A stretch of 64,000 nucleotides of DNA from Planctomycetota bacterium (GTDB taxonomy: Bacteria; Planctomycetota; PUPC01; DSUN01). The notes beneath the pieces are model-generated. The model did not search any database. It was not told the origin of the DNA and saw nothing but the letters and a program-made list of their open reading frames with translations. Positions within the stretch are counted from its first letter, which is position 1, and each line of letters begins with the position of its first letter. Below, piece by piece: positions 1 through 31,241 of this stretch. The DNA is taken from positions 8,579-72,578 of the forward strand of contig DAOOIT010000002.1 in NCBI GenBank assembly GCA_035384565.1. Direction: 5' to 3'. Made by a program: the position numbers and the translations under genes.

Positions 1-827
1 ACCGGGCCGCTCCAGGCGAGGCGGCCATCGCGGCTCGGGGTCGCGCCGCAGCCCCGGAGCCAGCGCACGGCCGTGGCGGCATCGAAGCTCATCGCCGCGA
101 TGTCCAGCACACACCGCCCGTAGCGGTCCATCCCCCCGCTCTGAGCCAGATCGGCCGGGCTGGGCTTCTGGAGGAAGCGGCGAGCCTGCCCGCCCGGGCC
201 GAGGCAGAAGACCCCGTGGCGGCTCGCCTGCTCGGGAGTGGCCAAGCAACCCAGGGCCGTCACGCCTGCCGGGGCCAGGCGCACCTCTGTCGGATCGAAC
301 TCCTTGATGTCATCGCCGGCGGCTACCACGACCTGGCCGCACCCCGGCGGGAGCGCCGGCAGGGCAAGATAGGCGGGCAACTGCCGATCGAACAGCGTCT
401 CCGCTACGCCGCTGTTCGACTCGCCGGGGACGGGCATGAACGCCTTGCCGCACGGCCCATAGGCGGGAAGACGCATCGAGTCCCCTCCCGCATGCACGAT
501 CAGGATACGGAGCCTCTCGAGGGCCGCTTGCCAGGCCGCGGGTTCGCCGAGCTCGGCTTGGCGTCCCGCCAGCTCGCGAGTGATCACTTCCATCAGGCAC
601 GCCACCGTGCTCCCACCGCTGCCGACCCGCCTTCCCGCCGGGTCGGGCACCACCAGCGCCCTGCGGATGCCGGCCAGGAGCCCCAACTCCTCGCGCACGC
701 GCAACTGCGCTTCATATGTGCGCGCCTGCCGCTCGTTCGAGGCGGTGACGATCACGTAGTCCCAGTTGTCGGCGGCGGGCCTCGAGTGGCCCCCCGCGCC
801 ATCGGGCAAGTGCGCCATGGCGCTCAT
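1..827 (-). CDS. Partial CDS (runs off the window start; 3' end not seen): fucokinase-domain-like sugar-1-phosphate nucleotidyltransferase/kinase family protein
   Basis: Not in the ORF track because no stop lies inside the window. Manual minus-strand translation from ATG (revcomp of 825-827) is open to position 1: MSAMAHLPDGAGGHSRPAADNWDYVIVTASNERQARTYEAQLRVREELGLL...GSGGSTVACL...ILIVHAGGDSMRLP. The WD(Y/A)(I/V)VLTA.NE.QA..YE.QL N-terminus is reminiscent of the L-fucokinase/GDP-fucose pyrophosphorylase (Fuc_kinase) family. The start overlaps the stop of the upstream Wzy_C gene (ATGA at 824-827). Confidence 0.45.
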   Translation of the reverse strand, partial: MSAMAHLPDGAGGHSRPAADNWDYVIVTASNERQARTYEAQLRVREELGLLAGIRRALVVPDPAGRRVGSGGSTVACLMEVITRELAGRQAELGEPAAWQAALERLRILIVHAGGDSMRLPAYGPCGKAFMPVPGESNSGVAETLFDRQLPAYLALPALPPGCGQVVVAAGDDIKEFDPTEVRLAPAGVTALGCLATPEQASRHGVFCLGPGGQARRFLQKPSPADLAQSGGMDRYGRCVLDIAAMSFDAATAVRWLRGCGATPSRDGRLAWSGP

Positions 828-2209
828 CCCACCCCTCCACGGCTCCAGGCACTGCGCCCAACCAGGGCGGCCGGTTGGCCGGCCACAGGCAGGCGACAGT
901 GCCTCCCGCTCCCCGGCTGAGGCGGACTCTGACGGGCCCGGGCTTGCCTCAGACTGCGGTCGAGGACCTCGAGATAGGCCAGTATGGGAACGATCACGAG
1001 CAGGTCCACCGAGAACGCAGCAGCCGTAGTCTCGGGGATGCTGCGAACGGTGAAGAAGGCCAGGACCGCGCCCGCTTCAATCAGAAGGGTCCGGTGCTGC
1101 GCCGAGAGCGCTGCCAGACTCCGGAGGCTGCGGAAGAACAGCCGCCACCCGACCACCCACGACGCGACGAAGAAGGCCGTGCCGGCCACCCCGGCCTGCA
1201 TCAGCGCGAGGAGCCAGGTGTTGTGCACGTGTTGGAGGCCCATGTGGAACCTGTCTGCCAGGGGCCCAAGACCCAGCACGGGCGATCGCAGGAAGACCTC
1301 CCAGCCCTCCCGCCACACCTCGGTTCGTCCTGTCATCCGCATCAGGTTCTCGCCGGGTCCGCGCCGGTACACGATGCCCTCTATTCTCTCCGCCATGGTG
1401 GCATCTGCAAGCATGGCCAAACCTGCGACGCCCATCGTGAGGAACAATGCACCCTTGCCTCTCTGCACCGACAGCATGAAGAGAGCGGCGACCACGAAGC
1501 CGATGAGCGGCGTTCGGGCGCGTGTGGCGAGCATCAGCACGATGGACGCACCGCACACGGCCCCCCAGAGCACCCGGCCCGGGCCTCTCGCCTGCCACAT
1601 CCGGCTGAAGGCGAACACGGCCGGCACGGCCGCCAGGCGTCCGATGCCCGTGGACCGCGACATGGTCACTCCCCCCACCGCAGGGATCACATTGACAACC
1701 TCGACGTCCGAAGACCACCAATCGCCCGAGCTGAACAGAACATCCCAGGCCACGATCGCCAGCCCCACGGCCAGGGTGGCCACCATCACCCACGTGAGCG
1801 TGAGAAGCTGAGCACTGCCAGACAACGGATCGCTTCGGGCCACCACAGCCTCCAGCACGATGAACACCGACAGGTACAGCGCCCCCCAGTAGAGGGCCTC
1901 GAATGGCGACGCAGAGAGCAGCGAAGTGCCCAGCATGAACAGGCCATACACGGCCATGAGCCGAACGGGACCCGACCTGCCGAAGACGCCGAGCGTGCCC
2001 CGCCGACGAACGAAGAGATAGGCCCCCACGGCAGCGGCGAACGCCAGCAGCGACCGGGCGAAGTGCAGGTATCCAACCAGCCCGGTCGGATTGCGCCAAT
2101 GCCGAGGGTCGGCCTCGATATTGAGCCAGAGCATCACCCAGAGGAGCAAACTCCAGGACAGCGCTCCTCCCAGGGCGGGTCGTCTTACTGCGGGTGCCGC
2201 AGGCCCCAT
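824..2209 (-). CDS. O-antigen ligase / Wzy_C-domain polytopic membrane protein (WaaL/PglL/Wzy-like)
   Basis: 461-aa multi-transmembrane ORF with a Wzy_C-type loop, ...LGLGPLADRFHMGLQHVHNTWLLALMQAGVAGTAFFVASWVV...; it is the last complete gene of the minus-strand cluster. Confidence 0.65.
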   Translation of the reverse strand: MGPAAPAVRRPALGGALSWSLLLWVMLWLNIEADPRHWRNPTGLVGYLHFARSLLAFAAAVGAYLFVRRRGTLGVFGRSGPVRLMAVYGLFMLGTSLLSASPFEALYWGALYLSVFIVLEAVVARSDPLSGSAQLLTLTWVMVATLAVGLAIVAWDVLFSSGDWWSSDVEVVNVIPAVGGVTMSRSTGIGRLAAVPAVFAFSRMWQARGPGRVLWGAVCGASIVLMLATRARTPLIGFVVAALFMLSVQRGKGALFLTMGVAGLAMLADATMAERIEGIVYRRGPGENLMRMTGRTEVWREGWEVFLRSPVLGLGPLADRFHMGLQHVHNTWLLALMQAGVAGTAFFVASWVVGWRLFFRSLRSLAALSAQHRTLLIEAGAVLAFFTVRSIPETTAAAFSVDLLVIVPILAYLEVLDRSLRQARARQSPPQPGSGRHCRLPVAGQPAALVGRSAWSRGGVG

Positions 2210-2219
2210 CGAGTTTCCC

Positions 2220-3419
2220 TCAGGGCGCCTCGGCGCGTCCCAGGGCGAGCGCTTTCTGATAGACCCACATCAGCCGTTCATAGCACCGGTCGCGCGAGTA
2301 CTCGGTCGTGGCCTTCTGGCGGCCCGCCATGCCCATCTCCCGACACAGGCCAGGCTCGGCCCACAAGCGGCGGAGTCTCTCCACCAACTGGGGCACATTG
2401 CCGGGCTCGTAGAGCAGGCCGGTGACCCCTTCTTCCACGATCTCTGGCAGCGCACCGATCCGTGTGGCCACCACGGGCCGCCCCGCGCACATCGCCTCGA
2501 CCAGCACATTGGGGAAGCCCTCGAACCACTTGCTGCAACAGACCAGGATTCGGGTCTCCCGGTAGAACTCCGCGAGCCGTTCCCCTGACAGAAAGCCATG
2601 GAACAACACGTTCGGAGGGGCGCCCGCCACGGCCTCCGGCATCGCGGAGGCGTCGCCCGCCACGGCGAAGCGAAGCTCGGGCAGCGCCCGGGCCGCCGCC
2701 AGAAAGTCCGCGATCCCCTTCTCGGGGCTGAGCCGCCCGACGAAGGAGATCGTGCTGCCTTCCCCAGGCTCCGCCGGTGGGGCTAGCGCCGACCCCGCGA
2801 TCATGTTCGGGACGACCTCGACCCTGTCGGCGGGGATTCCTCGATCAATGAACCGCCTTCGCTGGAACTCTGACAGCACCACAAACACGGCCACGTTCTC
2901 TCGGATCATCCCCGTGATTCTGGCGAAAGCGTTCCGCAGCGCATACCCGAGGCTCTTCGGCAGGCTGCCGGCGCAGTTCTTCAGCACGCACCACAGCTCG
3001 CCCCCTGTGCCCATGCACTTCTCGCACAGGCGGCCGCCCGAGAGCAAGAGGCCGGTCGGGCAGAAGAGGCGGTAGTTCGGGCAGCGCATGACTATGGGGA
3101 TTCCCCGCCTCCGCACCGGCGCCAGAATCGAGGGCGAGAGCAATGGATAGAGATTCTGAACCTGGACGATGTCGAAGTCGCTCCCGCGAAGGAGTTCAGC
3201 CATCTCGCGGCGCGACCTGAAGCTGTGGATGCCGGAGAAGAACGCCCGCGTCTTGCCTGCCAGGGATCCAGGAATACCCGCGGACGACTTCCCGAACCAC
3301 GTCACGCAATGGCCCCGCTCCTCGAGCAGCCGCGCAATGCTCTCGCACGCATGCTCCTCGCCACTCGGCCTAGCGTAGTCATTGTGAACCAAGAGAACTC
3401 TCACCGCATGGCTCCCCAA
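2220..3419 (-). CDS. Glycosyltransferase family 4 (GT-B, group 1)
   Basis: 399 aa; C-terminal GT4 signature EGFPNVLVEAMCAGRPVVATRIGALPEIVEEGVTGLLYEPGN; 11 nt from the next gene. Confidence 0.85.
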   Translation of the reverse strand: MGSHAVRVLLVHNDYARPSGEEHACESIARLLEERGHCVTWFGKSSAGIPGSLAGKTRAFFSGIHSFRSRREMAELLRGSDFDIVQVQNLYPLLSPSILAPVRRRGIPIVMRCPNYRLFCPTGLLLSGGRLCEKCMGTGGELWCVLKNCAGSLPKSLGYALRNAFARITGMIRENVAVFVVLSEFQRRRFIDRGIPADRVEVVPNMIAGSALAPPAEPGEGSTISFVGRLSPEKGIADFLAAARALPELRFAVAGDASAMPEAVAGAPPNVLFHGFLSGERLAEFYRETRILVCCSKWFEGFPNVLVEAMCAGRPVVATRIGALPEIVEEGVTGLLYEPGNVPQLVERLRRLWAEPGLCREMGMAGRQKATTEYSRDRCYERLMWVYQKALALGRAEAP

Positions 3420-3487: not shown

Positions 3488-5485
3488 CTACTTCCTCAGT
3501 TCGCGCAAGTACCAGTCAGCCCCGAGATGCACATCATCAGCAAGGCCGCGTGGGTACCCTTCGCCGTAGAGAAGGTAATCAGCATCAGTCGGGATGGGCT
3601 GCGTGCCCTTGCCGTAGACGTTCAGCGGGATGATCCTCCTCGTCAGTGTCGCGCCGAAGAGCGGATACTCGTAGCTTCGCGCCGCCAACCACACGGCCAC
3701 TGTCGCGCATTTCGGGACAAGCTCCTCATATCTCCTCATGGCGGGCGCATATCTCCTGTTGTGCGCCATAAGCTGGCTGATCCTATCTCTCCTGAACACC
3801 GACTCCCAGACACTCCCCTGGTAGTGCAGAGCTACCAACGGTCGGTCCGGTCTCACGGTGACAGCAGAGAGGGCCGAGGCACAGCCGATCAGCACGACGA
3901 TGGCAACATAGGCCCGAAGGAACCCCGATCGTGCTCTGAGGCACAAACCCACCACGGGGACCGCGCACACCGCGCAGGGTGGGAAGTACCTGCTGACATC
4001 TGTGCCGTATCTGACACCAAAGGAAACCCCGACAAAGAACAATAGGGAGGCAAAGGAAAACGGCCTGAATCTCCAGTAGCCCATGACCCCGGCTACTGAC
4101 ATAGCCACAGCAATCCATATGAGACCGAAGCCAAGAATCCCCCAATAGGACATGTCCTCATGGATCGTCGGCGGCCTGTTGTAGTTGAACCAGCGGTTTG
4201 GATGGCCGCCGATGGAGAACGGCAGATTCATCCCGATCTTCTCTGCTGCCGTCCTCGGAATCAGCCGCACGAGGACCTGCACTCCGGATACGGGGCTGAC
4301 CGGGGGAAGCCCGTCAAGAGACAGGAACCCAAAACCGATACGCGCGGCGTTCTTCACCCCTTCCCACGCACTGCTACCATAGGAACTGTAGGAACGTTCC
4401 GACACGCCAAGGAGCTGCCGCACCTCTGGGGGACCGATCGGGTTCCCGAACACCCGGTAGTTCTCCAGGTACCCTGAGGGAAGTCCAAAGACAGCGATAC
4501 CAAGAGACACCGAAGCGGCAAAGACAAGCAGGGCCCGCAACCGTCCTCGGGCTGGCTGACAGGTTCCCACAAGGCAGTACAGAAACACTGGCGTCATCGC
4601 TAGGAGGGCAAGCAATGCGGTCACCTTCGTGCCGACGGAGAGGCCCGCCGCCAACCCTGAGAAAGCGAGGTACCTCCATTGGTGGGTTCGCCTGAAGACC
4701 AGGAGGAAGTAGCTAAGTGAGCCAGAGTACGCTGCCACGAGCAAGTCCTGCTGCGTGGTGACCGCCTGGAGCAGGCACTGTGGAAGCAGTGCGAACACAA
4801 GAGAGGCGAATAGGGCTTCCTTCCTGCTGCAACCAAGGCTCGCCGTGATGCCGTAGACGGCGCAGGTAGCAACCCAGTAGGAAAGATACTGAATCAGCTG
4901 GCAAGCGTTCTCGTTCCTTCCAGAAACGAGCAAGGTATACAGCGCAAGCACCGCGTGGTTCTTCGGTGTAGCAATCTGCGCGTAGAAGTTGGCATCATAG
5001 TGCGCGAGGCTACCGTGTTGCAGGTAGTAGGCTACCCTCGCGAGATAGCATGTCATACCGTCCCAGTGAGTGGGCGCTGTGAACAGGGCTACTGCCAAGT
5101 TGGCCAAACCACATGCCGCGGCTGCGGCGAACATTGCGAGAAGGGTGGTTCGCTCATACCATGACCACGACCGCACTTGGGCTGTGAACCAAGAGACGCT
5201 GACCTTGGGCAATAACCTTCTCCGTGGAAGGACCAGTTGCCCGAGCCGACCGTTGACGACAGCAAGCGCGAAGCACAGCGAAGCTGTGATCACGCCATAG
5301 AGTGACCAGTAACCGAGATCACTCAAGCGGTTGATGGCGGACAGAAGGTATCCTCCGAGGACAATCTCTGCGGTCAACAGACAGAAAGAGAGAAGGATGG
5401 TTGCCACATGTCCCCGAGGTCGAAATAGAACGAGCAAGAAGTAGCAGCACAGAAACAGACTCACTGTGGCCAGAATGTTGTGCAA
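3488..5485 (-). CDS. Large polytopic membrane protein, GT-C fold glycosyltransferase-like (ArnT/PMT_2-like)
   Basis: 665 aa with more than 10 predicted TM helices in the N-terminal half and a soluble C-terminal domain; first periplasmic loop HWDGMTCYLARVAYY resembles the D-x-x-x-Y-x-x-A-R loop of ArnT/PMT GT-C enzymes. Lies immediately downstream of a DPM1-like GT2. Confidence 0.5.
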   Translation of the reverse strand: MHNILATVSLFLCCYFLLVLFRPRGHVATILLSFCLLTAEIVLGGYLLSAINRLSDLGYWSLYGVITASLCFALAVVNGRLGQLVLPRRRLLPKVSVSWFTAQVRSWSWYERTTLLAMFAAAAACGLANLAVALFTAPTHWDGMTCYLARVAYYLQHGSLAHYDANFYAQIATPKNHAVLALYTLLVSGRNENACQLIQYLSYWVATCAVYGITASLGCSRKEALFASLVFALLPQCLLQAVTTQQDLLVAAYSGSLSYFLLVFRRTHQWRYLAFSGLAAGLSVGTKVTALLALLAMTPVFLYCLVGTCQPARGRLRALLVFAASVSLGIAVFGLPSGYLENYRVFGNPIGPPEVRQLLGVSERSYSSYGSSAWEGVKNAARIGFGFLSLDGLPPVSPVSGVQVLVRLIPRTAAEKIGMNLPFSIGGHPNRWFNYNRPPTIHEDMSYWGILGFGLIWIAVAMSVAGVMGYWRFRPFSFASLLFFVGVSFGVRYGTDVSRYFPPCAVCAVPVVGLCLRARSGFLRAYVAIVVLIGCASALSAVTVRPDRPLVALHYQGSVWESVFRRDRISQLMAHNRRYAPAMRRYEELVPKCATVAVWLAARSYEYPLFGATLTRRIIPLNVYGKGTQPIPTDADYLLYGEGYPRGLADDVHLGADWYLRELRK

Positions 5486-5570: not shown

Positions 5571-6464
5571 TCACCGGTACTGCGGGCATCGGTCCTCCCC
5601 AGGCTGCGCCCCAGGGTGGTGGCGAACAGGTCCGGGGAGCCTCCAGCGCCGCACGGCAAGGCAGAGGCCCAGGTAACCGCCGATGGTCCGGAGAATGCGC
5701 ATACGGCTCTTGCCGCGGCGGGCGGCGGTGTCGAGGCGAAACGGGACTTCGGAGATGCTGAGGCGCAGGTTCATTGCCTTCTTGAGCATCTCGACGACGC
5801 CCTCGAACCCAGCGCGCTCGATGATTCGAGGGCCGTAAGCAGCCTGGAGGGCAAGGACGGCCCGCCCGCGGAAAACGCGGAAGAAGGAACTCATCGTGTG
5901 GATGCCTGTCATACCCAGGAGACCCCGAAGCACGATGGCGTTCGCCCCGAAGCTCAGGAACCGCCGCCACCAGCTTGTGTGCTCAAACCCGCCACCGTAG
6001 GCGTAGGGTGAGGCGAGGACGACGTCGAGGTCCTCCCGTTCGCACCGTTCGAGCATGCGAAGAAGAGTCTCGACTCGCCCCGTGTTGTCACCCTCCACCG
6101 TGGCGACGAAGTCCGTGGGTTCGAGGTCGCCGGCGAGGTGTTCGAAGGCGGTCCCGAACGCACTCCCTGGTCCCATGTTTCCCTCGTGCTTCAGTACAGC
6201 CAGAGCGAGGCCATGGCCCAGGGCCGCGGCCAGCTCGGGTGTGCCATCGTTGCTCCCATCGTCCACGAGGATGACGCAAGTCCCGTAACGCCCCGCTTGC
6301 GAAGCCGCAAGTTCCCGGAAACTGGCGAAGAGACCCTCGAGATTGGGGGCCTCATTGAGCACCGGTACGATAACGTGCAACGATCGTAACGGGGCGTCCG
6401 CGGCATAGCGCGCACCCTCAAGCATGTTAGCTCTCCGAAGACTCTGTGCTGGGATTCCCATCAA
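5571..6464 (-). CDS. GT2 polyprenyl-phosphate sugar synthase (DPM1/GtrB-like)
   Basis: LHVIVPVLNEAPNLE...CVILVDDGSNDGT...VVLASPYAYGGG: classic GT-A/DXD family 2 similar to dolichyl-/undecaprenyl-phosphate mannose/glucose synthases. True start is probably Met14 (about 6425), giving a 1-nt gap from the upstream gene. Confidence 0.8.
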   Translation of the reverse strand: MMGIPAQSLRRANMLEGARYAADAPLRSLHVIVPVLNEAPNLEGLFASFRELAASQAGRYGTCVILVDDGSNDGTPELAAALGHGLALAVLKHEGNMGPGSAFGTAFEHLAGDLEPTDFVATVEGDNTGRVETLLRMLERCEREDLDVVLASPYAYGGGFEHTSWWRRFLSFGANAIVLRGLLGMTGIHTMSSFFRVFRGRAVLALQAAYGPRIIERAGFEGVVEMLKKAMNLRLSISEVPFRLDTAARRGKSRMRILRTIGGYLGLCLAVRRWRLPGPVRHHPGAQPGEDRCPQYR

Positions 6465-7386
6465 GAACCCCTCGAAGCGCCATGGGGATCATGATTAGGA
6501 ACGCGGGTAGAAACTTCGCTAGTTCGCGCAGCAGCCCATTGAAGAAGAACAGGATCGTATAGGGGAGCAGGCTTAAGAACGCCAGGCGATGGAATGCGTC
6601 GCTCTTCCTGAACGCGACCGTAGACAGAAGGGCAAAGCCCGCCACCTCCACTGTCCATAGTGGGACAATCGATGTCAACAGGTCGTGCACGTTGGAGTTG
6701 GACGCGATGTGGAAGGCAGTGGTGAACTGAGTCGGCTTGGCCCCGTAGTACGCCCGGGTGCCAAGCATAGCGACCGCCCACAGCAGGAGACTCGCTAGAG
6801 CGAGAAGAATCCCGCGTCTGTCCAGCCTCCGTTGGGCGACGAGGTCGATGACATACCACACAATGAGAAAGGCTATCTGCTCGCGATTGAGGGCTCCCAA
6901 AAAGACGATCACGGGCAAGTACTGAACCCTGCCACTTCGGAACAGGGCCAACCCCAGTGTGTAAAACCAGAGCGTGATGAAATCGCCTTCCATGTAGTAC
7001 CCTGTTACCGATAGGGGTATTACAACCTGCAACAGAAGCACGCCCACTATCGCGCCGCTCTGGCCGAAGCCTCTCCACAGGTACCGGTGAAAGCAGATGA
7101 AGATGGCCAGAAACGTAACCATGGAGATCGACGCATAGGAGAAGACATGCTGCATACGCCTGTTCCGCACAACTGTTGAGGCCATGGTTTCGACAACCGT
7201 TCCAAGCAGGGGTTTCAGAATCCTGAACTGATAGGGCGATTGCGCCTGCCCGGTCAGGATCCTGTCAACATGTGCGATACGCTTCTCGACGTTTGGCAAT
7301 ATCACGGTCCTGCAGACATAATATGTCGATATCATCGCCAGCATCACGGGTACTACAAGACCATGTAGCCCTCTCGGTTGCATCGC
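6427..7386 (-). CDS. Polytopic membrane protein of unknown function (candidate flippase/GtrA-like partner)
   Basis: Hydrophobic ORF (MISTYYVC...FLAIFICFHRYLW...LLLQVVIPLSVTGYY...). The listed ORF reaches 7647, but the first ~85 codons are Arg-rich and non-protein-like; start proposed at MQPRGLHG (about 7386). Confidence 0.4.
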   Translation of the reverse strand, partial: AMQPRGLHGLVVPVMLAMISTYYVCRTVILPNVEKRIAHVDRILTGQAQSPYQFRILKPLLGTVVETMASTVVRNRRMQHVFSYASISMVTFLAIFICFHRYLWRGFGQSGAIVGVLLLQVVIPLSVTGYYMEGDFITLWFYTLGLALFRSGRVQYLPVIVFLGALNREQIAFLIVWYVIDLVAQRRLDRRGILLALASLLLWAVAMLGTRAYYGAKPTQFTTAFHIASNSNVHDLLTSIVPLWTVEVAGFALLSTVAFRKSDAFHRLAFLSLLPYTILFFFNGLLRELAKFLPAFLIMIPMALRGVLDGNPSTESSES

Positions 7387-7643: not shown

Positions 7644-8642
7644 TCACACGGCTTCAGTGGGAATCTGGAGGTTCCGCCGGGCTTCGGCGAGGCAGAGGCG
7701 AATGGCGTCCGCCATCGAGTGCTTCGGCTCGTAGCCGAGCAGGGTGTGGGCCTTGGTAAGGTCGGGCCGCCGTCGCATGATGTCTTTGTACCTGCCGAAG
7801 ACTTCCTGGAAGGGGATGAACTTGAGCTTGAGGGGCCTCCCCGTGTCGGCCAGGCGGTGGATGAGGCGCGCGGCGTCGAGGACGCTCATCTCCTCGGGGC
7901 TGCCGAGGTTGATGATCTGGCCGACGGCCCGCTCGTTCTCCATCGCCAGAATGGTGCCCTGGATGAGGTCGTCCACGTAGGCCATCGAGCGGGTCTGGGA
8001 ACCGTCGCCGTGGATGGGCACCTCCTCATGGCGCAGGATCTTGTGAATGAAGATGGGGATGTGGCCGCCGACCCAAGTGAAGCTGGAGCGAGGGCTGAAT
8101 CCGCCGAAGTAGCGGAGGACGACCACGGGCACGGCGTAGTCGTGATGGTAGGCGAACGCAAGCTGCTCGCCGTATAGCTTGGCCACGGCATAGCTCCAGC
8201 GGCGGATGAGGCTGGGGCCGAGCAGCAGGTCGCCGTCCTCGCGGAAGGGCAGGTCGGGCGACATGCCATAGACGTCCGACGTGGAGGCGAAGATGACCTT
8301 CTTCCGCCACATCCGCGCGGCATCGAGGACGTTCTCGGTGCCCTGGGCGTTCACCTTGAGGGTGGCCATGCTCGAATCGGCCTCGGCCACCTTCTTCACG
8401 GCAGCCAGATGCACGAGGGTGTCGGCCTCCCGGGCGAGAATCTTGAGGGTGTCCATGTCCAGAATGTCAACGGGGTAGAACCTGAATGCCTCGTTGGCGA
8501 GCTGATGCCGGATGTTCTCCATCCGGCCGAAGGACATGTTGTCAATACCGATGACGCGGCAGCCGCGCCCGAGCAAGGCATCAAGCAGGTGTGAGCCGAT
8601 CATCCCGGCCACGCCCGTAATCAGTACTACTCCATCTGACAT
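7644..8642 (-). CDS. NAD-dependent epimerase/dehydratase (extended SDR; UDP-sugar 4-epimerase / UDP-glucuronate decarboxylase family)
   Basis: N-terminal Rossmann VLITGVAGMIGSHLLDALL, catalytic YAVAKLYGE (YxxxK), 332 aa. Confidence 0.85.
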   Translation of the reverse strand: MSDGVVLITGVAGMIGSHLLDALLGRGCRVIGIDNMSFGRMENIRHQLANEAFRFYPVDILDMDTLKILAREADTLVHLAAVKKVAEADSSMATLKVNAQGTENVLDAARMWRKKVIFASTSDVYGMSPDLPFREDGDLLLGPSLIRRWSYAVAKLYGEQLAFAYHHDYAVPVVVLRYFGGFSPRSSFTWVGGHIPIFIHKILRHEEVPIHGDGSQTRSMAYVDDLIQGTILAMENERAVGQIINLGSPEEMSVLDAARLIHRLADTGRPLKLKFIPFQEVFGRYKDIMRRRPDLTKAHTLLGYEPKHSMADAIRLCLAEARRNLQIPTEAV

Positions 8643-12911: not shown

Positions 12912-12915
12912 TGCC

Positions 12916-16285: not shown

Positions 16286-16326
16286 CGCCCGAACCAGGGG
16301 ACGCACCAGCGGAACTCCCCCATCGC

Positions 16327-24188: not shown

Positions 24189-25300
24189 GCGCCATCCTCC
24201 GCGGGGTCTTCTGGGGTCGGGGTGTGGCGCGCTGTCCCGCTTCTTCCCTGATGGGCAGGCAGGAAGTGCGCGCGCTTGATGCCCAGAAGGCGCCCGACCT
24301 GCTTTACGGCGGCCAGGGTTGCCATTCGGGGCGGCCAGAGACGGAGGGCTCGCCAGAACAGCCGGCGGCTTGCCGCGCTGTTGCGTCGAACGAGAGCGAT
24401 GGACTGCTGGAGGAGCGACGCTGATGCTGCTCTCCTGAGCCAGGCGAAAGTGGAGCTGGACTCGCGCGCTCTGGCCTGGAGGAGCAGTTCGGCAAGGAGC
24501 GAGAGGACGAGAGGCAGTAGGTCGGCTTTGATCGGGCCATGACCACACAGAAGCCATCTTAGCCCCGCGGCCTCCGGCCCGCCAAGCTCGCGCCCGAGGT
24601 AGCGAGACATCAGGCGCCGGGAGACGCTGCAACCAAGCTCTCTGCCAGCAAGCCCGCGGGTGGCCGCGCTCGAACGGGGATGGGATCGGTGTCTCATCAG
24701 GGGGGCAGAGAGGTTGCCGAAGATCGTATGGTCACGGAGTCTCGCCCACAGGTCATAGTCCTGCGCAACCCAGAACCTCTCATCGTATCCGCCGAAGGTC
24801 AGAACCAGCTCGCGCCGGAAGATGGCCAGGGGGTGAGAGAGGCAGGCGGTCCAGAGAAGCATCAGCCTGATCTGTTCATCTCTGCACGGAGGCGAGTGAC
24901 GCTCAAGAATCCCTCCCTTCTCGTCAGTAGTCCAGAAAGCGGCGGACGATGCACCGATCTGCTGGCTGCGTTCCATGTAGCTCACCTGCCTGGCCAGGCG
25001 GGTGGGGACGTAGACATCATCCGCGTCCGCACGTGCCACAAGGGGGGCGCGCGCCGCCCGAAGGCCCCGGTTCAGCGACACAGGCAGCGTGAGGCAACGG
25101 TCATTGCGTACGACCACAACCCTGGGATCCGAGTAGCTGCGCAGAATCGCCCCTGTGCCGTCCGTGCTGCCATCGTCCACGATGAGGAACTCGAAATCCC
25201 GGAACGTCTGGGCGAGGATGCTATCCACCGCCTGGCGAAGGAAGGCCTCGCCGTTGTGAACGGACATCAGCACTGTCACCGCTGGCGCCGTCATGAACAC
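24185..25300 (-). CDS. Glycosyltransferase family 2
   Basis: VTVLMSVHNGEAFLRQAVDSILAQTFRDFEFLIVDDGSTDGT... is a canonical GT2 N-terminus; 371 aa. Confidence 0.85.
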   Translation of the reverse strand: MFMTAPAVTVLMSVHNGEAFLRQAVDSILAQTFRDFEFLIVDDGSTDGTGAILRSYSDPRVVVVRNDRCLTLPVSLNRGLRAARAPLVARADADDVYVPTRLARQVSYMERSQQIGASSAAFWTTDEKGGILERHSPPCRDEQIRLMLLWTACLSHPLAIFRRELVLTFGGYDERFWVAQDYDLWARLRDHTIFGNLSAPLMRHRSHPRSSAATRGLAGRELGCSVSRRLMSRYLGRELGGPEAAGLRWLLCGHGPIKADLLPLVLSLLAELLLQARARESSSTFAWLRRAASASLLQQSIALVRRNSAASRRLFWRALRLWPPRMATLAAVKQVGRLLGIKRAHFLPAHQGRSGTARHTPTPEDPAEDGA

Positions 25301-25313
25301 TTCACCATCGGTG

Positions 25314-25952
25314 TCACTTGACCGCTATGATCCAGGTGACAATGGGCCACCGTGGATCGTTTCTTGTGGCCAGTCGGTGGAAAGGGTGCCACCTGGCGTG
25401 CGGGACCCCTTCGTACCTGAGACCATCACCTTCGTCGCCCACTATCGGCCACACTTCTCTGTTCCCCCAGCTACCGACCTCGATAACCCTTGTCCAAGCT
25501 CGGTGGAGCAGAGACAAGCCTTGGGGTGTGAATCGCCAGAAGTCCTCTGGGGCGCCATGGATTGGGTGGAGCAGACAGGTGGTGTGGACAGCTATGCCGC
25601 CCCTTCTCAGAACTCGGTGGCATTCATCTATGGCCTGTTGTGGACTTCCCTCGACATGCTCCAGCACTTGGTCCGATAGCACGTGGTCAAAGCTGGCATC
25701 TGGGTAGTCAAGGTGGAGAATGCTGTGCTCTGGGTAGTTGGCCTCGACAACTGCCGTTGGCTTCAGGCTGAGGAGTCCGCAGAGATTGGCCGAATGACTG
25801 ATAGCGAGCACGCATCCTGTTCGGTGCGGCAAGAGCGTTCCGACAGCACGGAGTCGTTCATACATGAAGTAGCGGGTAATGCGAGGCCCACGACGCAGGC
25901 CCCTCATTGACAGGCGCCACACAAGTTCGCGCACCTTCTGTAAGATACGCAT
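25314..25952 (-). CDS. Class I SAM-dependent methyltransferase (small)
   Basis: Start MRILQKVRELV; ...FDHVLSDQVLEHVEGSPQQAIDECHRVLRRGGIAV (Methyltransf_11-like). Confidence 0.6.
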   Translation of the reverse strand: MRILQKVRELVWRLSMRGLRRGPRITRYFMYERLRAVGTLLPHRTGCVLAISHSANLCGLLSLKPTAVVEANYPEHSILHLDYPDASFDHVLSDQVLEHVEGSPQQAIDECHRVLRRGGIAVHTTCLLHPIHGAPEDFWRFTPQGLSLLHRAWTRVIEVGSWGNREVWPIVGDEGDGLRYEGVPHARWHPFHRLATRNDPRWPIVTWIIAVK

Positions 25953-25954
25953 CG

Positions 25955-26803
25955 CTACCTTGGTGTTTCGGGCAGAAGGGGGCGCGTGGCCACCACGACC
26001 TGGGTGAGCCAATACTTTCCTGTAGGGTTGAACTTGTAGAGGAGGTTCTTTCCAAACCAGATATTGGCAAGACTCATCAGCCAGCGGAAGACGGGTCTTC
26101 GGAGGAACAACCTGGGGTACCAGTAGTACAGATCGAGCGCGAACAACGATGTGCAGAAGGCATGCTGTGTGACGCAGAGGGACTCGCCGACAAGACGGCT
26201 GAACTCGCCGGGAAAGAACTCTCGCACGTGTTCCCTGGCCTGTACGAATTCGGTAAGGCGGACCGGGGTGGATAGGACGAGACGTCCGTTCGGCCGCATG
26301 ACCCGCCGCATGTCGGCCAGCAATCCTCGGGCGTCCGCGACGTGTTCGATCACGTCCGCGCAGACCACAACATCCTGTGTTCCGTCTCCGACGAGGGCCA
26401 GAGCATCCAGAACTTTGACTGATGCGCCCTTCCTACGCAGCATCTCGGCAGCCAGTGCCCTGCCTGTGAGGTCCGGCTCGACGCACGATGTCTGACCATT
26501 CGGGTTGCGGCGATACAGCATGTAAGTGAGCGCGCCATCACCAGAGCCGACGTCCAGAACGGACATGCCGTCCCGGATACGTACAGCATCCAGCACTGCG
26601 CGGTACCGAGCGGCCGTGAGGAGGTCATGGTTCCTGGGGTCGCGGCTGAACGCGAGCCAATGATAGGCTCCCCGCCTGACGTACTTGCTGAACGGAGGCA
26701 CACTTGGCTGTGTCTCACCGCTCACGTGCTCACCATCAGTTGCCTCGCGCATCGCAGTGTCCCTGCCGGATCGGCAGTCGCTAGTGGGATACGTGTGCTG
26801 CAT
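25955..26803 (-). CDS. Class I SAM-dependent methyltransferase
   Basis: VLDVGSGDGALTYML...DVVVCADVIEHVADARGLLADMRRVMRPNGRLVLSTP; 282 aa. Confidence 0.75.
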   Translation of the reverse strand: MQHTYPTSDCRSGRDTAMREATDGEHVSGETQPSVPPFSKYVRRGAYHWLAFSRDPRNHDLLTAARYRAVLDAVRIRDGMSVLDVGSGDGALTYMLYRRNPNGQTSCVEPDLTGRALAAEMLRRKGASVKVLDALALVGDGTQDVVVCADVIEHVADARGLLADMRRVMRPNGRLVLSTPVRLTEFVQAREHVREFFPGEFSRLVGESLCVTQHAFCTSLFALDLYYWYPRLFLRRPVFRWLMSLANIWFGKNLLYKFNPTGKYWLTQVVVATRPLLPETPR

Positions 26804-26892: not shown

Positions 26893-28194
26893 TCACGGCT
26901 GAGCAATGTCGCCTGCCAGATGGGTGTCCACATCCCGGTACGACCAGTCAGCGAGCTGGAAGACGACGCCCTTTGCCTTGAGAAGTGGTCGTCTCACCCG
27001 AGGATTCGATTGGTCAACAGTGAAGCTGAGGCAACCATCTGCAAGGTCGGCTCGATTCCCGATGGTGTCGCCAACCCAGAACGACACCCTGTAGCGGTCG
27101 GGAACAAGCTGAAGCTGGGGAATGCATGCGCGGACCACACGCTGGCGAGCCGGGTGGAGAGCACTCGACCTTGAGTCGACGTCCCAAAGGTGATAGACTG
27201 GAGTTCCGTCGCTGTTGACGATGAGGATGCCGTGGCTATAGTGCTGAGAAGGCGACAAGTAGCGAACAGCAAACTCAAAGACGATGGACTCGCCAAGGCT
27301 GAAGTTGACCTTAGGGTTGCCCTCCCTATCACGGATGGAACCCTCAAGAATCCTGGCAGATCCATCACCGCTCTCCTCCGTCCTGGTCCGCAGACACACA
27401 CTCGCTCCGCTGCTTTCGCCTAGAGTCCGCAGGTAGAGCCTGACAGCCGCGCCTGGATCGAGATCCGCCACAAGGCTGCCCGCGTCCAGCACCAAGGCTC
27501 GACGACATAAGTGTGCAATCGCGGCCATGTTGTGGCTCACGAAGAGCACCGTTCGGCCGCCGTGCGCGACCTCGCTCATCTTCCCCAGGCACTTCTGTTG
27601 GAACCCCGCATCCCCCACGGCGAGCACCTCGTCCACGAGCAGGATCTCGGGCTCGAGGTGGGCGGCGACGGCGAAGGCGAGACGGACGTACATGCCCGAG
27701 GAATACCGCTTGACGGGGGTGTCTATGAACTTGTCCAGCTCGGCGAAGGCGACAATCTCGTCGAACTTGCGGGCGATCTCGGCCCTGCTCATGCCGAGGA
27801 TGGCGCCGTTGAGGTAGATGTTCTCGCGGCCCGTGAGCTCGGGATGGAAGCCGGTGCCGACCTCCAGGAGGCTGGCGACACGGCCCCGTATGCGGGCGCG
27901 GCCCTCGGTCGGCTCGGTGATGCGGGAGAGGATCTTGAGCAGGGTGCTCTTGCCGGCGCCGTTGCGGCCAATGATGCCAAGCACCTCGCCTTGCTGGACC
28001 TCGAAGGAGACGTCTTTGAGGGCCCAGATGGTGTCGTCGCCGCCGCTCGGGGCGCGGCCGAGGTTCCGAAGCCTTCTGAACGGTGCGGCGAGGGCGTCGG
28101 TGATGGCCTCGCGGAAGGTGTGGTAGCTCTCGCGCGCGCCGATGCGGTAGCTCTTGGAGAGGCCCTCGACTCGGATGACGGGCTCAGGCATCCG
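26893..28194 (-). CDS. wzt: Wzt/TagH-type polysaccharide ABC exporter ATPase with C-terminal carbohydrate-binding (Wzt_C-like) domain
   Basis: Start [15 protein letters not shown]; Walker [10 protein letters not shown], signature [14 protein letters not shown], Walker [14 protein letters not shown]-loop SHNM; about 180-aa C-terminal beta-rich extension (...[31 protein letters not shown]...VSFWVGD...). Confidence 0.85.
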
Positions 28195-28373
28195 AGGGCC
28201 TCCGGCATGGGTCTGCGGACCTACAGTGGGCTGTGGTGTCACAGAGGGCAGCCCCTAGGGGCTGGGGGCGCCAGAGGGCCTCCCCTAGGAACCGGGAACT
28301 CTGGGAGAGTCTGGGAGACTTAGACCATGTTGTGGTGATGGTCTGCTGGCCTCCCAATGGGTGGGGGAGTGGG

Positions 28374-29225
28374 CTAGATGATGTCTGCAAAGCGCCGCTC
28401 GGTCTTGCGGAAGTAGAGGGTGCCGATGAGGATGGCGAGCAGGATGACGCCCGTGGAGACGGCGAGCTGGCCCCAGTGGAACGGCTTGCCGAGGATGGCG
28501 GAGCGGTAGGCGTCCACGATGCCGGTGAGGGGGTTGAGCAGGAGCAGCCACTGCCACCTCGGTGGCACGATCTGGACGGGGTAGAGGACGGGGGTGAGGA
28601 ACATCCAGATCTGGATGACGAAGGGGATCATGTAGCGGAAGTCGCGGTAGGTGACGTCGAGGGCGCTGAGCAGACACCCTACGCCGAAGGCGGCGAAGAT
28701 GGTGAGGGCGACCAGGGGCACGACGAGCAGCGTGGCCAGGGTGGGCGGGATGCTGTAGTAGAGCATCAGGCCGATGAGGATGGTGAAGGAGATCGCAAAG
28801 TCCACCAGGCATGCTCCGATGGCGGAGAGGGGGATGATGAGGCGTGGGAAGTAGACTTTGGTGATGAGGTTGGAGGAGCCGACGACGCTGCTGCTGCTGC
28901 GGCTGAGCGATTCGGAGAAGAATTGCCAGGGCAGCAGGCCGGCGTAGAGGAAGATGGGGTAGGGGAAGCCCTCGGAGTCGATCTTGGCCAGGCCGCCGAA
29001 GATGGCGCTGAAGATGACCATCTTGGTGAAGGGCTGGAGGAAGGCCCAGAGGAAGCCGAGCACGGTCTGCTTGTAGCGGACCTTGACGTCGCGCCAGGCG
29101 AGGAAGTAGAGGAGTTCGCGGTAGCGCCAGATTTCGCGGAAGTTGATGGGGAGCCAGCCCTTGCAGGGCTTGATGACCAGCTCGGGCAGCGGGGCCGGAG
29201 GGGCGGATGGCTCAGCGACGGCCAT
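28374..29225 (-). CDS. wzm: ABC-2 type polysaccharide exporter permease (Wzm-like)
   Basis: Start MAVAEPSAP...; 6-TM ABC-2 permease (WRDVKVRYKQTVLGFLWAFLQP...). The upstream part of the 402-aa track ORF is Pro/Ser/Arg-rich non-coding. Confidence 0.8.
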   Translation of the reverse strand: MAVAEPSAPPAPLPELVIKPCKGWLPINFREIWRYRELLYFLAWRDVKVRYKQTVLGFLWAFLQPFTKMVIFSAIFGGLAKIDSEGFPYPIFLYAGLLPWQFFSESLSRSSSSVVGSSNLITKVYFPRLIIPLSAIGACLVDFAISFTILIGLMLYYSIPPTLATLLVVPLVALTIFAAFGVGCLLSALDVTYRDFRYMIPFVIQIWMFLTPVLYPVQIVPPRWQWLLLLNPLTGIVDAYRSAILGKPFHWGQLAVSTGVILLAILIGTLYFRKTERRFADII

Positions 29226-30732
29226 GGGACTGTGCGGCTCCGGGGGCTGGATCGGGCGTGGCGGGGTCCGGGGCGTGAACGGGGCGCGACGGGGCGGGCA
29301 GGGAGGCCGGGTTGTGCTCGTCGAGGAGACGGGTGAAGTAGGCGAGCGTCTGGCCGGCGATTTCGAGCGAGCCGTTGACGGGGGCCTCGACCTGGGCATC
29401 GAGGCTCGCGCCGCTGCGGCGGTGGCGCACGGGGATGGTGGCCTTGAGGGTGGGGTGGCCCTGGGGGTTCGCCTGGCTCCAGGTGAGGGTGCGTTGCGTG
29501 CCGTCGCGGTTGTCGAGGGTGAGGGTGAGAGCGGCGAGCTGCATTTGGGCGGCGGCCGCGCAGAGGGCCTGCCACCATTCATCGAACGTGGTCGCTCGGC
29601 GGAGGCCCAGCTCGGCGCTCTCGAACTCGCGCCGGCCCTGTTGGATGGCGCGGGAGATGGCCAGCTTGCGCTGGATGCCCGCCATCGTGTCGCTCAGGGA
29701 CACGGAGCCCGCGATCCCGAAGACCAGGAGCAGGAGCACGAGGACGCCGGCGAGAACGAGAAGCTGCCCGGCGTCGCGCGTGAGCATCATGAACAGGCCC
29801 ATTCCTGCGGCAAGGATGGTGACGAGGTAGAGGATCAGGACGACGTGGCGGTGCTGGACGCCCATGTCGATCAGGCGGTGATGGATGTGGCCGCGGTCGG
29901 GCGCGAAGATCGAGCGGCGCTCGAGGAAGCGTCGGAGCATGCTGAACAGCGTGTCGAAGATGGGCACGCCCAGGGCGAGGGCGGGGAGCGCGAGACCCAC
30001 TATGGTGGATGCCTTGGTGGCGCAGAAGACGCTCGCGGTGGCCAGGACGAAGCCGAGGAAATAGGTGCCGCAGTCGCCCATGAAGACCTTGGCGGGGTTG
30101 AAGTTGTGGTAGAGGAAGCCCAGAAGGCTGCCCAGGAGAGCCGCCATGAGCACGGCCATGACCGCCTGGTTGGTGTGGATGGCGAAGATGCCGATGACCG
30201 CGCAGGCCGCCGCGCAGATGCCGGCGCACAGGCCGTCCAGGCCGTCAATCAGGTTCACGGCGTTGGTGATCCCGACGATCCAGAGGACTGTGAGGGGCCA
30301 CGAGAGCCAGCCGAGGTCGAGCGAGAGGACCCCCTTGACGACGATGGCCTCGATGCGGATGCCGAAGGCGCACACGCCGCAGGCGGCGGCCACCTGTATC
30401 AGGAGCTTGTAGCGGGCGCGAAGGCCGCGAACATCGTCCACCAGGCCCGCGACGGCGACCAGTCCGGCGAAGGCCAGAATCACAAGGAGGCCCTTCTGGG
30501 CGGCGCGCAGCGCGGTCCCGATGATGTTCGTCAGCGTCATCCCGAGGAGCACGGCAGCCGCCGTGGCCACGATGATGGCGACCCCGCCGACGCGGGGAAT
30601 GGCCCCGGAGTGGACCTTTCGGGGGTCCGGCCTGTCCACCAGGCGGATTCGGCGCGCAATCCATGCCACCAGGGGGGTGATGGCTAGCGAGAGCCCCGCC
30701 GCGGCGGCTACGGTGGCCACATAGGTCTTCAT
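29212..30732 (-). CDS. Polyprenyl-phosphate HexNAc-1-phosphate transferase, WecA/WbpL/TagO (MraY-family GT4 PNPT) with C-terminal extension
   Basis: ...ITNAVNLIDGLDGLCAG...FMGDCGTYFLGF...HIHHRLI... are the PNPT motifs; 11 TM helices plus a roughly 150-aa soluble C-terminal tail. Confidence 0.85.
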   Translation of the reverse strand: MKTYVATVAAAAGLSLAITPLVAWIARRIRLVDRPDPRKVHSGAIPRVGGVAIIVATAAAVLLGMTLTNIIGTALRAAQKGLLVILAFAGLVAVAGLVDDVRGLRARYKLLIQVAAACGVCAFGIRIEAIVVKGVLSLDLGWLSWPLTVLWIVGITNAVNLIDGLDGLCAGICAAACAVIGIFAIHTNQAVMAVLMAALLGSLLGFLYHNFNPAKVFMGDCGTYFLGFVLATASVFCATKASTIVGLALPALALGVPIFDTLFSMLRRFLERRSIFAPDRGHIHHRLIDMGVQHRHVVLILYLVTILAAGMGLFMMLTRDAGQLLVLAGVLVLLLLVFGIAGSVSLSDTMAGIQRKLAISRAIQQGRREFESAELGLRRATTFDEWWQALCAAAAQMQLAALTLTLDNRDGTQRTLTWSQANPQGHPTLKATIPVRHRRSGASLDAQVEAPVNGSLEIAGQTLAYFTRLLDEHNPASLPAPSRPVHAPDPATPDPAPGAAQSHGRR

Positions 30733-30740
30733 CGGAGCGC

Positions 30741-31241
30741 CTAGTCCACAGGCTCCAGGAGGTCAGCGTCCACCAGGAGCGCTGCACCGACACGAAGGAG
30801 GCTCACCTCGAGCACCAGTTGCGCGCGGGCCCGGCGGTCTACGACAACGCCCTCCAGGTCCGCGAAGGGCCCTGCTCTGACGCGGCATCGGCGGCCGACG
30901 GCGGCCTGAGGGTAAGGCTCCAGGTCGGCGCTGGCGGATATCGCGCGCTGGACGGCCGACAGCTCGCGGACCAGGCGTTCCTGGTCGGCCACCTCCAGGG
31001 TTCGGCAGACGCGGTTCGTCGTCAGCGCCGCGCGCCGAGCGGCCTCGTCGCCGCAGAAGAAGACATAAGAAGTGAAGAGGGGGATCAGCGTCCGGCGCTT
31101 GCGGCCGCCGGAGAAGAACACGTGCTGGCACAGCGGAAGGAAGTACCCGATGCCGTGGCGCAGCAGGTCCCAGGCGAGCGCCTTCTCGTTGCGGGCCTTG
31201 GTGTGCGCCACCCACCAGCGGCCCCGCAGGCCCGCCGGCAC
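30741..31241 (-). CDS. NusG/RfaH-family specialised transcription antitermination paralog
   Basis: ...RWWVAHTKARNEKALAWDLLRHGIGYFLP... (NGN domain) plus a C-terminal KOW-like CRVRAGPFADLEGVVVD. Sits 9 nt upstream of wecA at the head of the cluster. Start proposed at a GTG about 31241; the track ORF extends to 31622 through non-coding-like sequence. Confidence 0.65.
   Translation of the reverse strand: MPAGLRGRWWVAHTKARNEKALAWDLLRHGIGYFLPLCQHVFFSGGRKRRTLIPLFTSYVFFCGDEAARRAALTTNRVCRTLEVADQERLVRELSAVQRAISASADLEPYPQAAVGRRCRVRAGPFADLEGVVVDRRARAQLVLEVSLLRVGAALLVDADLLEPVD

Follow-up and report, generated by a model that had tools for sequence, protein, structure and literature searches.

The left-hand part of a 64,000-nucleotide (64-kb) stretch of DNA from a Planctomycetota bacterium (contig DAOOIT010000002.1 of assembly GCA_035384565.1, positions 8,579 to 72,578 of the forward strand; hereafter the window) carries 28 consecutive minus-strand genes, g28 to g1, with the content of an envelope-glycan pathway. 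The first of them, g28, encodes a specialised NusG paralog, and a 28-nt element just before its start codon recurs, close to invariant, upstream of homologous genes in other Planctomycetota. To judge from the sequence, the region is probably a long single-strand glycan operon headed by a dedicated paralog that would serve as an operon-specific antiterminator, as the original prediction for this locus proposed. We lean towards one explanation of operon, paralog and element together, in which the element is the site where the paralog is loaded onto RNA polymerase.

The NusG paralog and its relatives

Since the GC content of the window is about 67%, plain lists of open reading frames (ORFs) are crowded with shadow frames, and genes were resolved by frame analysis of GC at third codon positions (GC3) together with Pfam and NCBIfam scans. 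The predicted 28-gene chain runs from 31289 to position 1, with no credible plus-strand gene inside it on GC3 frame analysis, and continues for about 2.4 kb past the window start (Table 1).

The identity of g28 as a NusG paralog is close to certain. Its NGN domain scores 30.6 bits against Pfam NusG (PF02357, cut-off 22.2) and its KOW domain 21.3 bits, just under the cut-off of 22.3. An AlphaFold2 model built on a 100-sequence alignment shows an NGN domain and a beta-barrel KOW domain (pLDDT 94, pTM 0.89), the latter with five beta strands at 124–180 predicted with pLDDT above 90. The model NGN matches NusG and RfaH structures in Foldseek, and a family profile searched against the PDB recovers NusG at E=4.8e-8, isolated NusG KOW chains at E ~1e-3 and RfaH chains as well; the entry titled 'NusG-RNA complex' (8f5g) is the top match by profile and the fourth in Foldseek. 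The best named family is UpxY (NF033644), at 66.7 bits below its cut-off of 100, and the hidden Markov models (HMMs) of RfaH (TIGR01955; 26.3 bits, cut-off 144.5) and LoaP (NF033641; 18.1 bits, cut-off 125) score lower still. By these matches, g28 is a member of the NusG family that falls outside the UpxY, RfaH and LoaP families, and its surroundings mark it as a specialised paralog, since it sits between a divergent sugar ABC transporter and the glycan cluster, away from the secE-nusG-rplK-rplA setting.

The proposed identity of this first gene as an NGN and KOW protein is thereby upheld, but its start at 31241 is not. The GTG at 31289 gives 182 residues, the typical length of homologues, while gene callers start at 31313 (190 residues). 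Homologues begin with MLKxxxNPPxLxP, in which NPP is invariant, and this segment lies in the 24 residues that are dropped with the 31241 start. An exact-sequence lookup of the 166-residue ORF that begins at 31241 returned no such gene on record, which is consistent with a longer start. The exact g28 protein occurs on metagenome contigs (ENA ERZ795050 and others), and a basic hairpin, SGGRKRR, is conserved in the paralog clade, whose NGN helix alpha-1 reads HTKARxEK.

A homology search returned at least 774 proteins at E≤1e-5. The 120 listed with identities are about 57–99% identical to g28, most of them 57–75%, and those named are from Planctomycetes or Phycisphaerae. A scan of one genome per species gave at least 553 confirmed paralog matches; among the matches listed (80 loci), 79 are labelled Planctomycetota and comprise Phycisphaerae, Sedimentisphaerales, Tepidisphaerales, Pirellulales and others. 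As sampled by these searches, the paralog clade is large and Planctomycetota-wide. A 2.5-kb contig with paralog, element and WecA (L029, JALGSS010000861.1) is binned in a 'Candidatus Zipacnadia' (Armatimonadota) metagenome-assembled genome (MAG); because all other returned loci are labelled Planctomycetota, this label is probably a binning error and not a second phylum.

Directly downstream of the paralog, on the same strand, 45 of the 68 evaluable loci carry a WecA-like gene of about 510 codons. When the 28 proteins of the window are mapped onto the loci of relatives, this paralog-WecA pair proves to be the conserved part, so that the synteny expected of relatives holds for the pair and fails for the full 28-gene order. 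Elsewhere Wzm/Wzt or glycosyltransferase genes directly follow the paralog without WecA (L034, L050, L059, L063, L072), unrelated genes (TatD, UbiA and others) follow the paralog-WecA pair (L006), and in a minority of loci the paralog is an orphan. The MAG M_DeepCast_400m_m2_195 holds two paralog loci. One protein is 83% identical to g28 and its gene has the element (L009); the other is 56% identical (L061), with no element in the 250 nt available upstream, and is followed by Wzm and Wzt 92% and 76% identical to those of the window. Such a pattern could reflect exchange of a cassette behind a paralog that has diverged, or a mixed bin.

A conserved element upstream of the paralog

The element was found by k-mer counting in the 600 nt upstream of paralog homologues. 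It has the form GGTGCACCGAC-rGGGAC-GGAGT-GCGCGC and is conserved in primary sequence. The consensus, G-GTGCACCGAC-GGGGAC-GGAGT-GCGCGC, spans 28 positions and holds about 40 bits; G1, C6, C16, G20, T21 and G24 are invariant, and the conservation persists even in AT-rich genomes with unrelated flanks. The GGGGAC block also occurs as GAGAAC and AAGAAC. The window copy scores 39.4 bits against the position weight matrix (PWM) and lies 17–45 nt before the g28 start codon; it is the single copy in 64 kb, where no chance match is expected. When the leader is aligned with that of the closest relative (83% protein identity), no other conserved block than the element emerges. Its place is 30–75 nt before the paralog; in loci without a paralog gene it directly precedes a WecA or Wza gene.

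A PWM scan of both strands of 1.62 Mb of fetched DNA recovered only copies co-oriented with the paralog, mostly just upstream of it, with a few weak extras before other genes. In the reverse direction, which gives the most telling test, metagenome contigs fetched with a 22-mer of the element alone have a paralog 38–278 nt downstream in 42 of 50 loci. The four evaluable exceptions place the element directly before a Glycos_transf_4 gene (three loci, all free of a paralog for about 10 kb; two of them, L094 and L123, are identical around the element) or before a Wza-type Poly_export/SLBB gene (one locus). Where the paralog is not beside WecA (L034, L071), weaker copies occur 100–190 nt upstream of the distant WecA gene. 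A recognisable glycan gene comes next in 41 of 48 loci with the element vs 10 of 20 without it (Fisher p=0.0045). Taken together, the forward and reverse tests show that the element marks the 5′ end of WecA- or polysaccharide-type operons, of which the paralog is usually the first cistron. Tandem copies precede the paralog at two loci (L045, 9925–9989; L067, 1796–1871), 36 and 47 nt apart. Among 17 element-less loci there is no alternative shared motif, and two of these loci hold degenerate versions of the element (L055, L066). Its conservation and company make the element very probably a cis-regulatory signal tied to the paralog clade.

An Rfam scan of 30700–32400 at E≤10 gave nothing at the element and only sub-threshold chance matches in that interval, and literature searches on Planctomycetota NusG paralogs and on a 10-mer of the motif returned nothing relevant. 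The Planctomycetota-wide clade with its N-terminal extension, the fixed pairing with a WecA-like gene and, above all, the near-invariant 28-nt element appear to be undescribed.

The original prediction also saw possible ops-like signals in the leader of the cluster, in its direct repeats and palindromes. The leader does contain a conserved, strand-specific candidate, namely the element at 31306–31334; the repeats themselves are absent from relatives. They are real features: two 23-nt direct repeats 26 nt apart (31836–31884), a perfect 15-bp inverted repeat with a 3-nt spacer (31945–31977), and 35-nt arms that are 83% complementary (31859–31893 and 32004–32038) and flank the perfect inverted repeat. 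As a recruitment signal we reject them (D1, I1 and I4; 31836–32038), as they lie upstream of the sole strong promoter-like site and are not conserved. They could be an upstream activator site for either of the two divergent operons, or a small repeat element. A hepatitis delta virus (HDV) ribozyme match in Rfam on the palindrome at 31904–31983 (24.5 bits vs a gathering score of 50) is probably due to chance.

The probable glycan operon

As far as the stop codon of g1, the operon measures about 33.7 kb and comprises 28 genes, possibly 29 with the gene that follows. Six 4-nt overlaps between genes are firm, seven if the long form of g6 is used, which falls short of the eight or more originally counted. 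The WecA and Wzm genes share 14 nt, and many genes further on overlap or almost touch. The larger gaps are 131 nt, 175 nt and, between g7 and g6 (7345–7643), about 300 nt, so that the maximum of 175 nt first given is exceeded. The last gap arises because the first 100 codons of the long g6 ORF are Arg-rich and lack a GC3 signal and because public gene calls give the 305-aa product. Several gene starts are uncertain, and the gap sizes depend on the choice of start.

Scans for promoters and terminators rest on consensus matches. The site at 31622–31594 is the sole minus-strand promoter-like site within 1–32300 (one observed vs 0.1 expected in shuffles), and terminator-like matches on the operon are fewer than in shuffled sequence. 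A single promoter at the head and few terminator-like sites fit one transcription unit without proving it. We infer from the sequence that the 28 genes are carried on a single transcript, and consider it likely that the region is essentially one operon. Between the predicted promoter and the element, a weak terminator- or attenuator-like structure (31496–31512, minus strand) consists of a GC-rich stem, GGCGGGC...GCCCGCC, followed by GCTTGGTTGT.

Paralog and element might instead regulate the paralog-WecA module only, with the 26 genes downstream forming a separately promoted, horizontally exchanged cassette that merely shares the strand. The pair is the sole conserved one and is followed by unrelated genes in some genomes, the downstream cluster has GC and GC3 below those of the flanks (operon GC3 0.70–0.89 vs 0.87–0.95), and gaps of 131, 175 and about 300 nt break the chain. 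The 14-nt overlap of WecA with Wzm and the tight later junctions speak for continuity, however, as does the absence of an internal minus-strand promoter-like site in the consensus scan. Moreover, Wzm/Wzt or glycosyltransferase genes take the place directly after the paralog in the loci that lack WecA there, and paralogs of this kind are known for helping polymerase traverse long operons of foreign appearance (PMC7593976). We regard a module confined to the first two genes as quite unlikely.

The enzyme list drawn up earlier stands for the WecA-type initiator, Wzm/Wzt, the two deacetylases (PIG-L and YdjC), the AsnB-like protein and the Wzy_C protein. It needs correction in the methyltransferases, of which Pfam recognises five instead of six, and in the two GT-C enzymes, of which one (g4, PMT_2 by Pfam) is borne out; the second, g18, is weakly like a putative glycosyltransferase family with multiple transmembrane (TM) segments. 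No Polysacc_synt/Wzx Pfam match that would indicate a Wzx flippase is found among the 28 proteins, the polytopic g6 and g18 being without an assigned family, and no WbdD-type terminator is specifically identified among them, with the five Pfam methyltransferases present. Contigs that encode an identical Wzy_C protein show that g1 is the start of a 1075-aa Fkp-like fucokinase/guanosine diphosphate (GDP)-fucose pyrophosphorylase. There (L139, 8660–15025; L140, 11383–17481) the Fkp gene is followed, after a gap of 390 nt, by a same-strand glycoside hydrolase family 95 (GH95) alpha-fucosidase; a convergent histidine kinase comes next. The adjoining fucosidase suggests that scavenged L-fucose is fed into the glycan via Fkp. 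Fucose scavenging into glycans has been described for Bacteroides.

Read from these family matches, the gene content is a recognisable O-antigen-type pathway that depends on an ABC transporter, and the earlier view that it resembles no textbook O-antigen, capsule or teichoic-acid cluster does not hold. The logic of ABC-transporter-dependent O-polysaccharides is that of the E. coli O8/O9a and Klebsiella systems. The window operon shares with them a WecA initiator, Wzm/Wzt with a C-terminal carbohydrate-binding domain on Wzt, cytoplasmic GT2 and GT4 glycosyltransferases, methyltransferases that could cap the chain and a Wzy_C/WaaL-type protein. Unlike them, it has the additional PIG-L and YdjC deacetylases, an AsnB-like amidotransferase and five methyltransferases, as well as a WecG/TagA second-step enzyme, one or more GT-C enzymes and Fkp fucose salvage followed by GH95. 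The product would be a methylated glycan, primed on undecaprenyl diphosphate-linked N-acetylglucosamine (Und-PP-GlcNAc), assembled by the ABC-transporter route and probably containing fucose. WecA-like initiation would be followed by the WecG/TagA step and then by the cytoplasmic glycosyltransferases; methylation probably caps the chain, Wzm/Wzt would export it with the help of the carbohydrate-binding domain of Wzt, and the GT-C enzymes and the WaaL/Wzy_C protein would work on the periplasmic side.

Table 1. Genes and predicted sites of the glycan operon and its leader (window coordinates; genes in order of transcription).
Feature	Coordinates	Strand	Evidence and remarks
Sigma-70-type promoter-like site, TTGACA-17-TATAGT	31594..31622	minus	11/12 to consensus; prediction only; about 260 nt upstream of the conserved element
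Candidate extended ops-like loading/pause element, CGGTGCACCGACAGGGACGGAGTGTGGCC, 28-29 nt	31306..31334	minus	k-mer enrichment, PWM, alignment to relative
g28, specialised NusG paralog (NGN + KOW), 182 aa, GTG start	30741..31289	minus	HMM, AlphaFold2, homologues; gene callers start at 31313
g27, WecA/MraY-type polyprenyl-phosphate N-acetylhexosamine-1-phosphate transferase, 506 aa, ~9 TM	29212..30732	minus	Pfam Glycos_transf_4 141.5 bits; NCBIfam WecA best match, 133 bits, below cut-off
g26, Wzm, ABC-2 permease	28374..29225	minus	Pfam ABC2_membrane 83.8 bits, above cut-off
g25, Wzt ATPase with C-terminal carbohydrate-binding domain	26893..28242	minus	Pfam ABC_tran 84.1 and Wzt_C 47.3 bits, above cut-offs; NCBIfam Wzt/TagH-like
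g24, class I S-adenosylmethionine (SAM) methyltransferase	25955..26803	minus	Pfam
g23, class I SAM methyltransferase	25314..25952	minus	Pfam
g22, GT2 glycosyltransferase	24185..25300	minus	Pfam
g21, GT4 glycosyltransferase	22974..24095	minus	Pfam
g20, GT4-like glycosyltransferase	21739..22977	minus	Pfam; 4-nt overlap with g21
g19, GT4-like glycosyltransferase	20480..21742	minus	Pfam; 4-nt overlap with g20
g18, ~10-TM protein	18851..20431	minus	without Pfam match; weakly like the LA_3751/3752 putative multi-TM glycosyltransferase family, 33.8 bits vs cut-off 200
g17, SAM methyltransferase	18167..18775	minus	Pfam
g16, AsnB-like amidotransferase	16327..18072	minus	Pfam/NCBIfam
g15, FkbM-family methyltransferase	15416..16306	minus	Pfam
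g14, WecG/TagA/CpsF-family glycosyltransferase, predicted to act on the Und-PP-GlcNAc primer	14608..15483	minus	Pfam 203.9 bits
g13, PIG-L family de-N-acetylase	13727..14611	minus	Pfam; 4-nt overlap with g14
g12, methyltransferase with N-terminal zinc ribbon	12916..13719	minus	Pfam; start revised to ATG 13719
g11, GT1-fold glycosyltransferase	11727..12950	minus	Pfam
g10, GT2 glycosyltransferase	10804..11730	minus	Pfam; 4-nt overlap
g9, YdjC-family carbohydrate deacetylase	10053..10814	minus	Pfam 146.4 bits
g8, GT4 glycosyltransferase	8818..10056	minus	Pfam; 4-nt overlap
g7, nucleoside diphosphate-sugar epimerase/4,6-dehydratase	7644..8642	minus	Pfam/NCBIfam
g6, polytopic membrane protein, no family assigned	6427..7344	minus	305-aa form preferred
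g5, GT2 glycosyltransferase	5571..6464	minus	Pfam
g4, GT-C (PMT_2/ArnT-like) glycosyltransferase	3488..5485	minus	four additional N-terminal TM segments in the long form; start at 5056 in gene calls
g3, GT4 glycosyltransferase	2220..3419	minus	Pfam
g2, Wzy_C-family protein (WaaL-type ligase or polymerase)	824..2209	minus	Pfam Wzy_C 54.4 bits; family holds both ligases and polymerases
g1, 5′ part of 1075-aa Fkp-like fucokinase/fucose-1-phosphate guanylyltransferase	1..827	minus	runs off the window; 4-nt overlap with g2

Upstream of the leader, a divergent plus-strand cluster for sugar uptake and oxidation (32242–40350) encodes an SBP_bac_1 protein, two BPD_transp_1 permeases, a protein with an F5/8 type C domain, ThuA and two GFO/IDH/MocA oxidoreductases; its GC3 of 0.87–0.95 is much above that of the glycan operon. 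The plus-strand GC skew at 28001–30000, over the WecA and Wzm genes, is +0.265, far above that of the remaining window, and likely stems from C-ending codons of hydrophobic residues in polytopic membrane proteins encoded on the minus strand.

Reading of the element and comparison with known systems

A leader motif so near a start codon and its Shine-Dalgarno region could act as RNA. The KOW domain of the paralog (as proposed for LoaP), another factor or a small RNA would then bind it, with an effect on the first cistron through translation initiation or stability, or as a tether for the factor on the nascent transcript. The prominence of 8f5g among the structural matches fits this idea, and two small hairpins can be drawn, GUCGG-UGCA-CCGAC (5 bp) and GUGCAC paired with GUGCGC. 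Neither hairpin covaries beyond shuffled controls, though, and we discard both; at one stem position, G often gives way to C or U, in no case with a compensatory change. RNAalifold on 53 element sequences yields no consensus structure and no pairs, the whole window leader is no better at folding than its shuffled versions (z = 0.32), and nothing in Rfam matches the element. Since there is neither covariation nor a consensus fold, the element appears to be read as sequence, and action as RNA is improbable. A coding or upstream-ORF role is likewise discarded, because on inspection the variable positions are purine transitions at first and second codon positions in every frame.

As DNA, the 3′ half of the element fits the register of an elemental pause, G-11 G-10 ... 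T-3 G-2 Y-1 G+1. Across the sequences, position -1 is only C or T (38/15), G at +1 and T at -3 are invariant, and -11 and -10 are only G or A. The predicted pause in the window has T 31310 at -1 and G 31309 at +1, and in this register the element spans about -23 to +4, 8–52 nt before the start codon. By this pattern and by analogy with known paralogs, we mildly favour the view that the element acts as an ops-like loading site. Transcription would probably start at 31622–31594, and polymerase would reach the element at 31334–31306 before the start codon of the paralog and pause in its 3′ half, at 31310. The NGN domain of the paralog would recognise the exposed non-template strand together with upstream duplex DNA (the GGTGCACC half), take the place of housekeeping NusG and remain on the polymerase, which would then resist pausing as well as termination, whether by Rho or intrinsic, through an operon of lower GC. 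Since its own gene follows this site, the paralog would stimulate its own expression, as UpxY does. In genomes that encode the paralog at another place, a copy of the element ahead of WecA or Wza genes would load the protein in trans, in the manner of RfaH. The pausing, the binding and the antitermination are what we infer from these patterns and from the precedents. For the broader proposition, that the element is a phylum-wide extended ops-type loading site read by a Planctomycetota-specific paralog clade both in cis and in trans, the sequence comparisons leave the chances about even.

Several observations weigh against our explanation. No element is recognisable at roughly one in four paralog genes. 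Over 96 loci, the DNA upstream of the element shows no enrichment of sigma-70-like promoters (7 same-strand vs 9 opposite-strand), so the position of the promoter relative to the element cannot be generalised, and in many genomes the element may not be transcribed. A weak A-richness is seen at -12 to -8 from the first base of the motif. The GG-N6-TGYG pause pattern appears in 2.7% of consensus shuffles, and for this reason its support is only modest. The terminator-like hairpin of the window (31512–31496) lies upstream of the element, where the paralog could not act yet. In addition, an internal promoter may reside in the gaps of about 300 nt (g7/g6), 175 nt or 131 nt, and with only the paralog-WecA pair conserved, the factor might matter mainly for the first genes.

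Some of these points would also suit an element that works at initiation, either as a double-stranded operator for a conventional regulator or as an unusual promoter (for example, of an alternative sigma factor) that controls the paralog-WecA operon. Besides the A-richness just upstream and the unenriched sigma-70-like promoters in relatives, a 14-bp palindrome, GTCGGTGCACCGAC, makes up the 5′ half of the consensus and has an 8-bp core, GGTGCACC, that is well conserved on both arms, and 30–75 nt before a start codon is a typical distance. Yet the element shows strong asymmetry and a strict orientation with respect to the gene, and conservation is much lower in the outer left arm of the palindrome than in the right. 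It extends over all 28 positions of the element without the variable spacer of a -35/-10 pair, and sigma-54 and extracytoplasmic function (ECF) patterns, compared by eye, do not fit. A promoter at the element would leave 5′ untranslated regions of about 0–10 nt in several loci (distances of 31–38 nt). Finally, both the window and its closest relatives have a near-consensus sigma-70 promoter 190–260 nt ahead of the element, which in the relatives (L009/L104) is TTGACA-17-TAGCAT at 190 nt. An operator or promoter is, on this evidence, unlikely.

A loading site of the kind we favour has a precedent in the ops element of RfaH, GGCGGTAGCGTG. As with RfaH and ops (JUMPstart), the operons concerned are of the lipopolysaccharide, O-antigen or capsule type, the leader element overlaps a consensus pause, and reading would, by analogy, be of the non-template strand. 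In the same pause register, ops and the element are identical at 7 of 12 positions and 2 more keep a pyrimidine (compared by hand). Copies of the element before WecA or Wza genes without an adjacent paralog suggest action in trans, again as for RfaH. Unlike RfaH, the planctomycete paralog mostly has its gene in cis, as the first of the operon, and the element has 28 nt instead of the 12 of ops (GGCGGTAGnnTG), which it resembles at pause-consensus positions only. The KOW domain is modelled by AlphaFold2 as a beta barrel and not as the autoinhibitory alpha-hairpin of RfaH; with respect to fold switching, this is the state in a single prediction, whose pTM of 0.89 suggests a fixed arrangement of the two domains. 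The likeness to LoaP, which acts on polyketide clusters of Firmicutes and Actinobacteria, lies in a NusG paralog beside its target cluster and in a leader element. Unlike here, LoaP is proposed to bind an RNA hairpin; the planctomycete element shows no structure or covariation, and its targets are glycan and not polyketide genes.

A close parallel to the layout is UpxY of Bacteroides, which is recruited at multipartite 'opsX' sites of about 40 bp (Saba et al. 2024; PMC11685472). An opsX site brings together a consensus-type pause, the exposed non-template strand and duplex DNA that reaches upstream to about -34; the UpxY NGN domain reads it, a basic beta-hairpin is proposed to position the upstream DNA, and the sites lie 9–111 nt before the upxY start codon (PMC11685472). 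Here, too, the paralog is the first gene of a polysaccharide operon and carries a basic NGN beta-hairpin, and its predicted recruitment would occur at a long (~30–40 nt) element, read as sequence, with a consensus-type pause tens of nt before the start. The differences are that g28 scores under the family cut-off, that the second gene of the operon is WecA-like and an UpxZ anti-factor gene is missing, that one near-identical element serves phylum-wide in place of the locus-specific, variable ops sites of Bacteroides, and that the element also precedes operons without a paralog gene. No pause hairpin is supported, and the paralog has a clade-specific N-terminal 'MLKxxxNPP' extension. A class of NusG paralogs with genes in or close to envelope-glycan operons is already known (PMC7819879, PMC7593976). 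For most specialised paralogs outside RfaH the mode of recruitment is unknown (PMC7593976), with UpxY now added to those for which it is described.

The element is near-invariant across Phycisphaerae, Sedimentisphaerales, Tepidisphaerales and Pirellulales and is tied to one paralog clade and to the enzyme that initiates glycans on undecaprenyl phosphate, which makes paralog and element a testable protein-DNA pair. If our reading is true, the recruitment code is conserved enough (about 40 bits across classes) for a direct test with one protein and one oligonucleotide, and the 12-nt ops, the variable opsX of about 40 nt and the invariant 28-nt element would show how recruitment specificity evolves. 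The element also offers a simple sequence marker for envelope-glycan operons in Planctomycetota, whose surface polysaccharides are poorly understood, and the operon of the window is among the longest of its type. On the same condition, Planctomycetota, for which such regulation has not been described, would possess a dedicated regulon that controls elongation in envelope-glycan operons.

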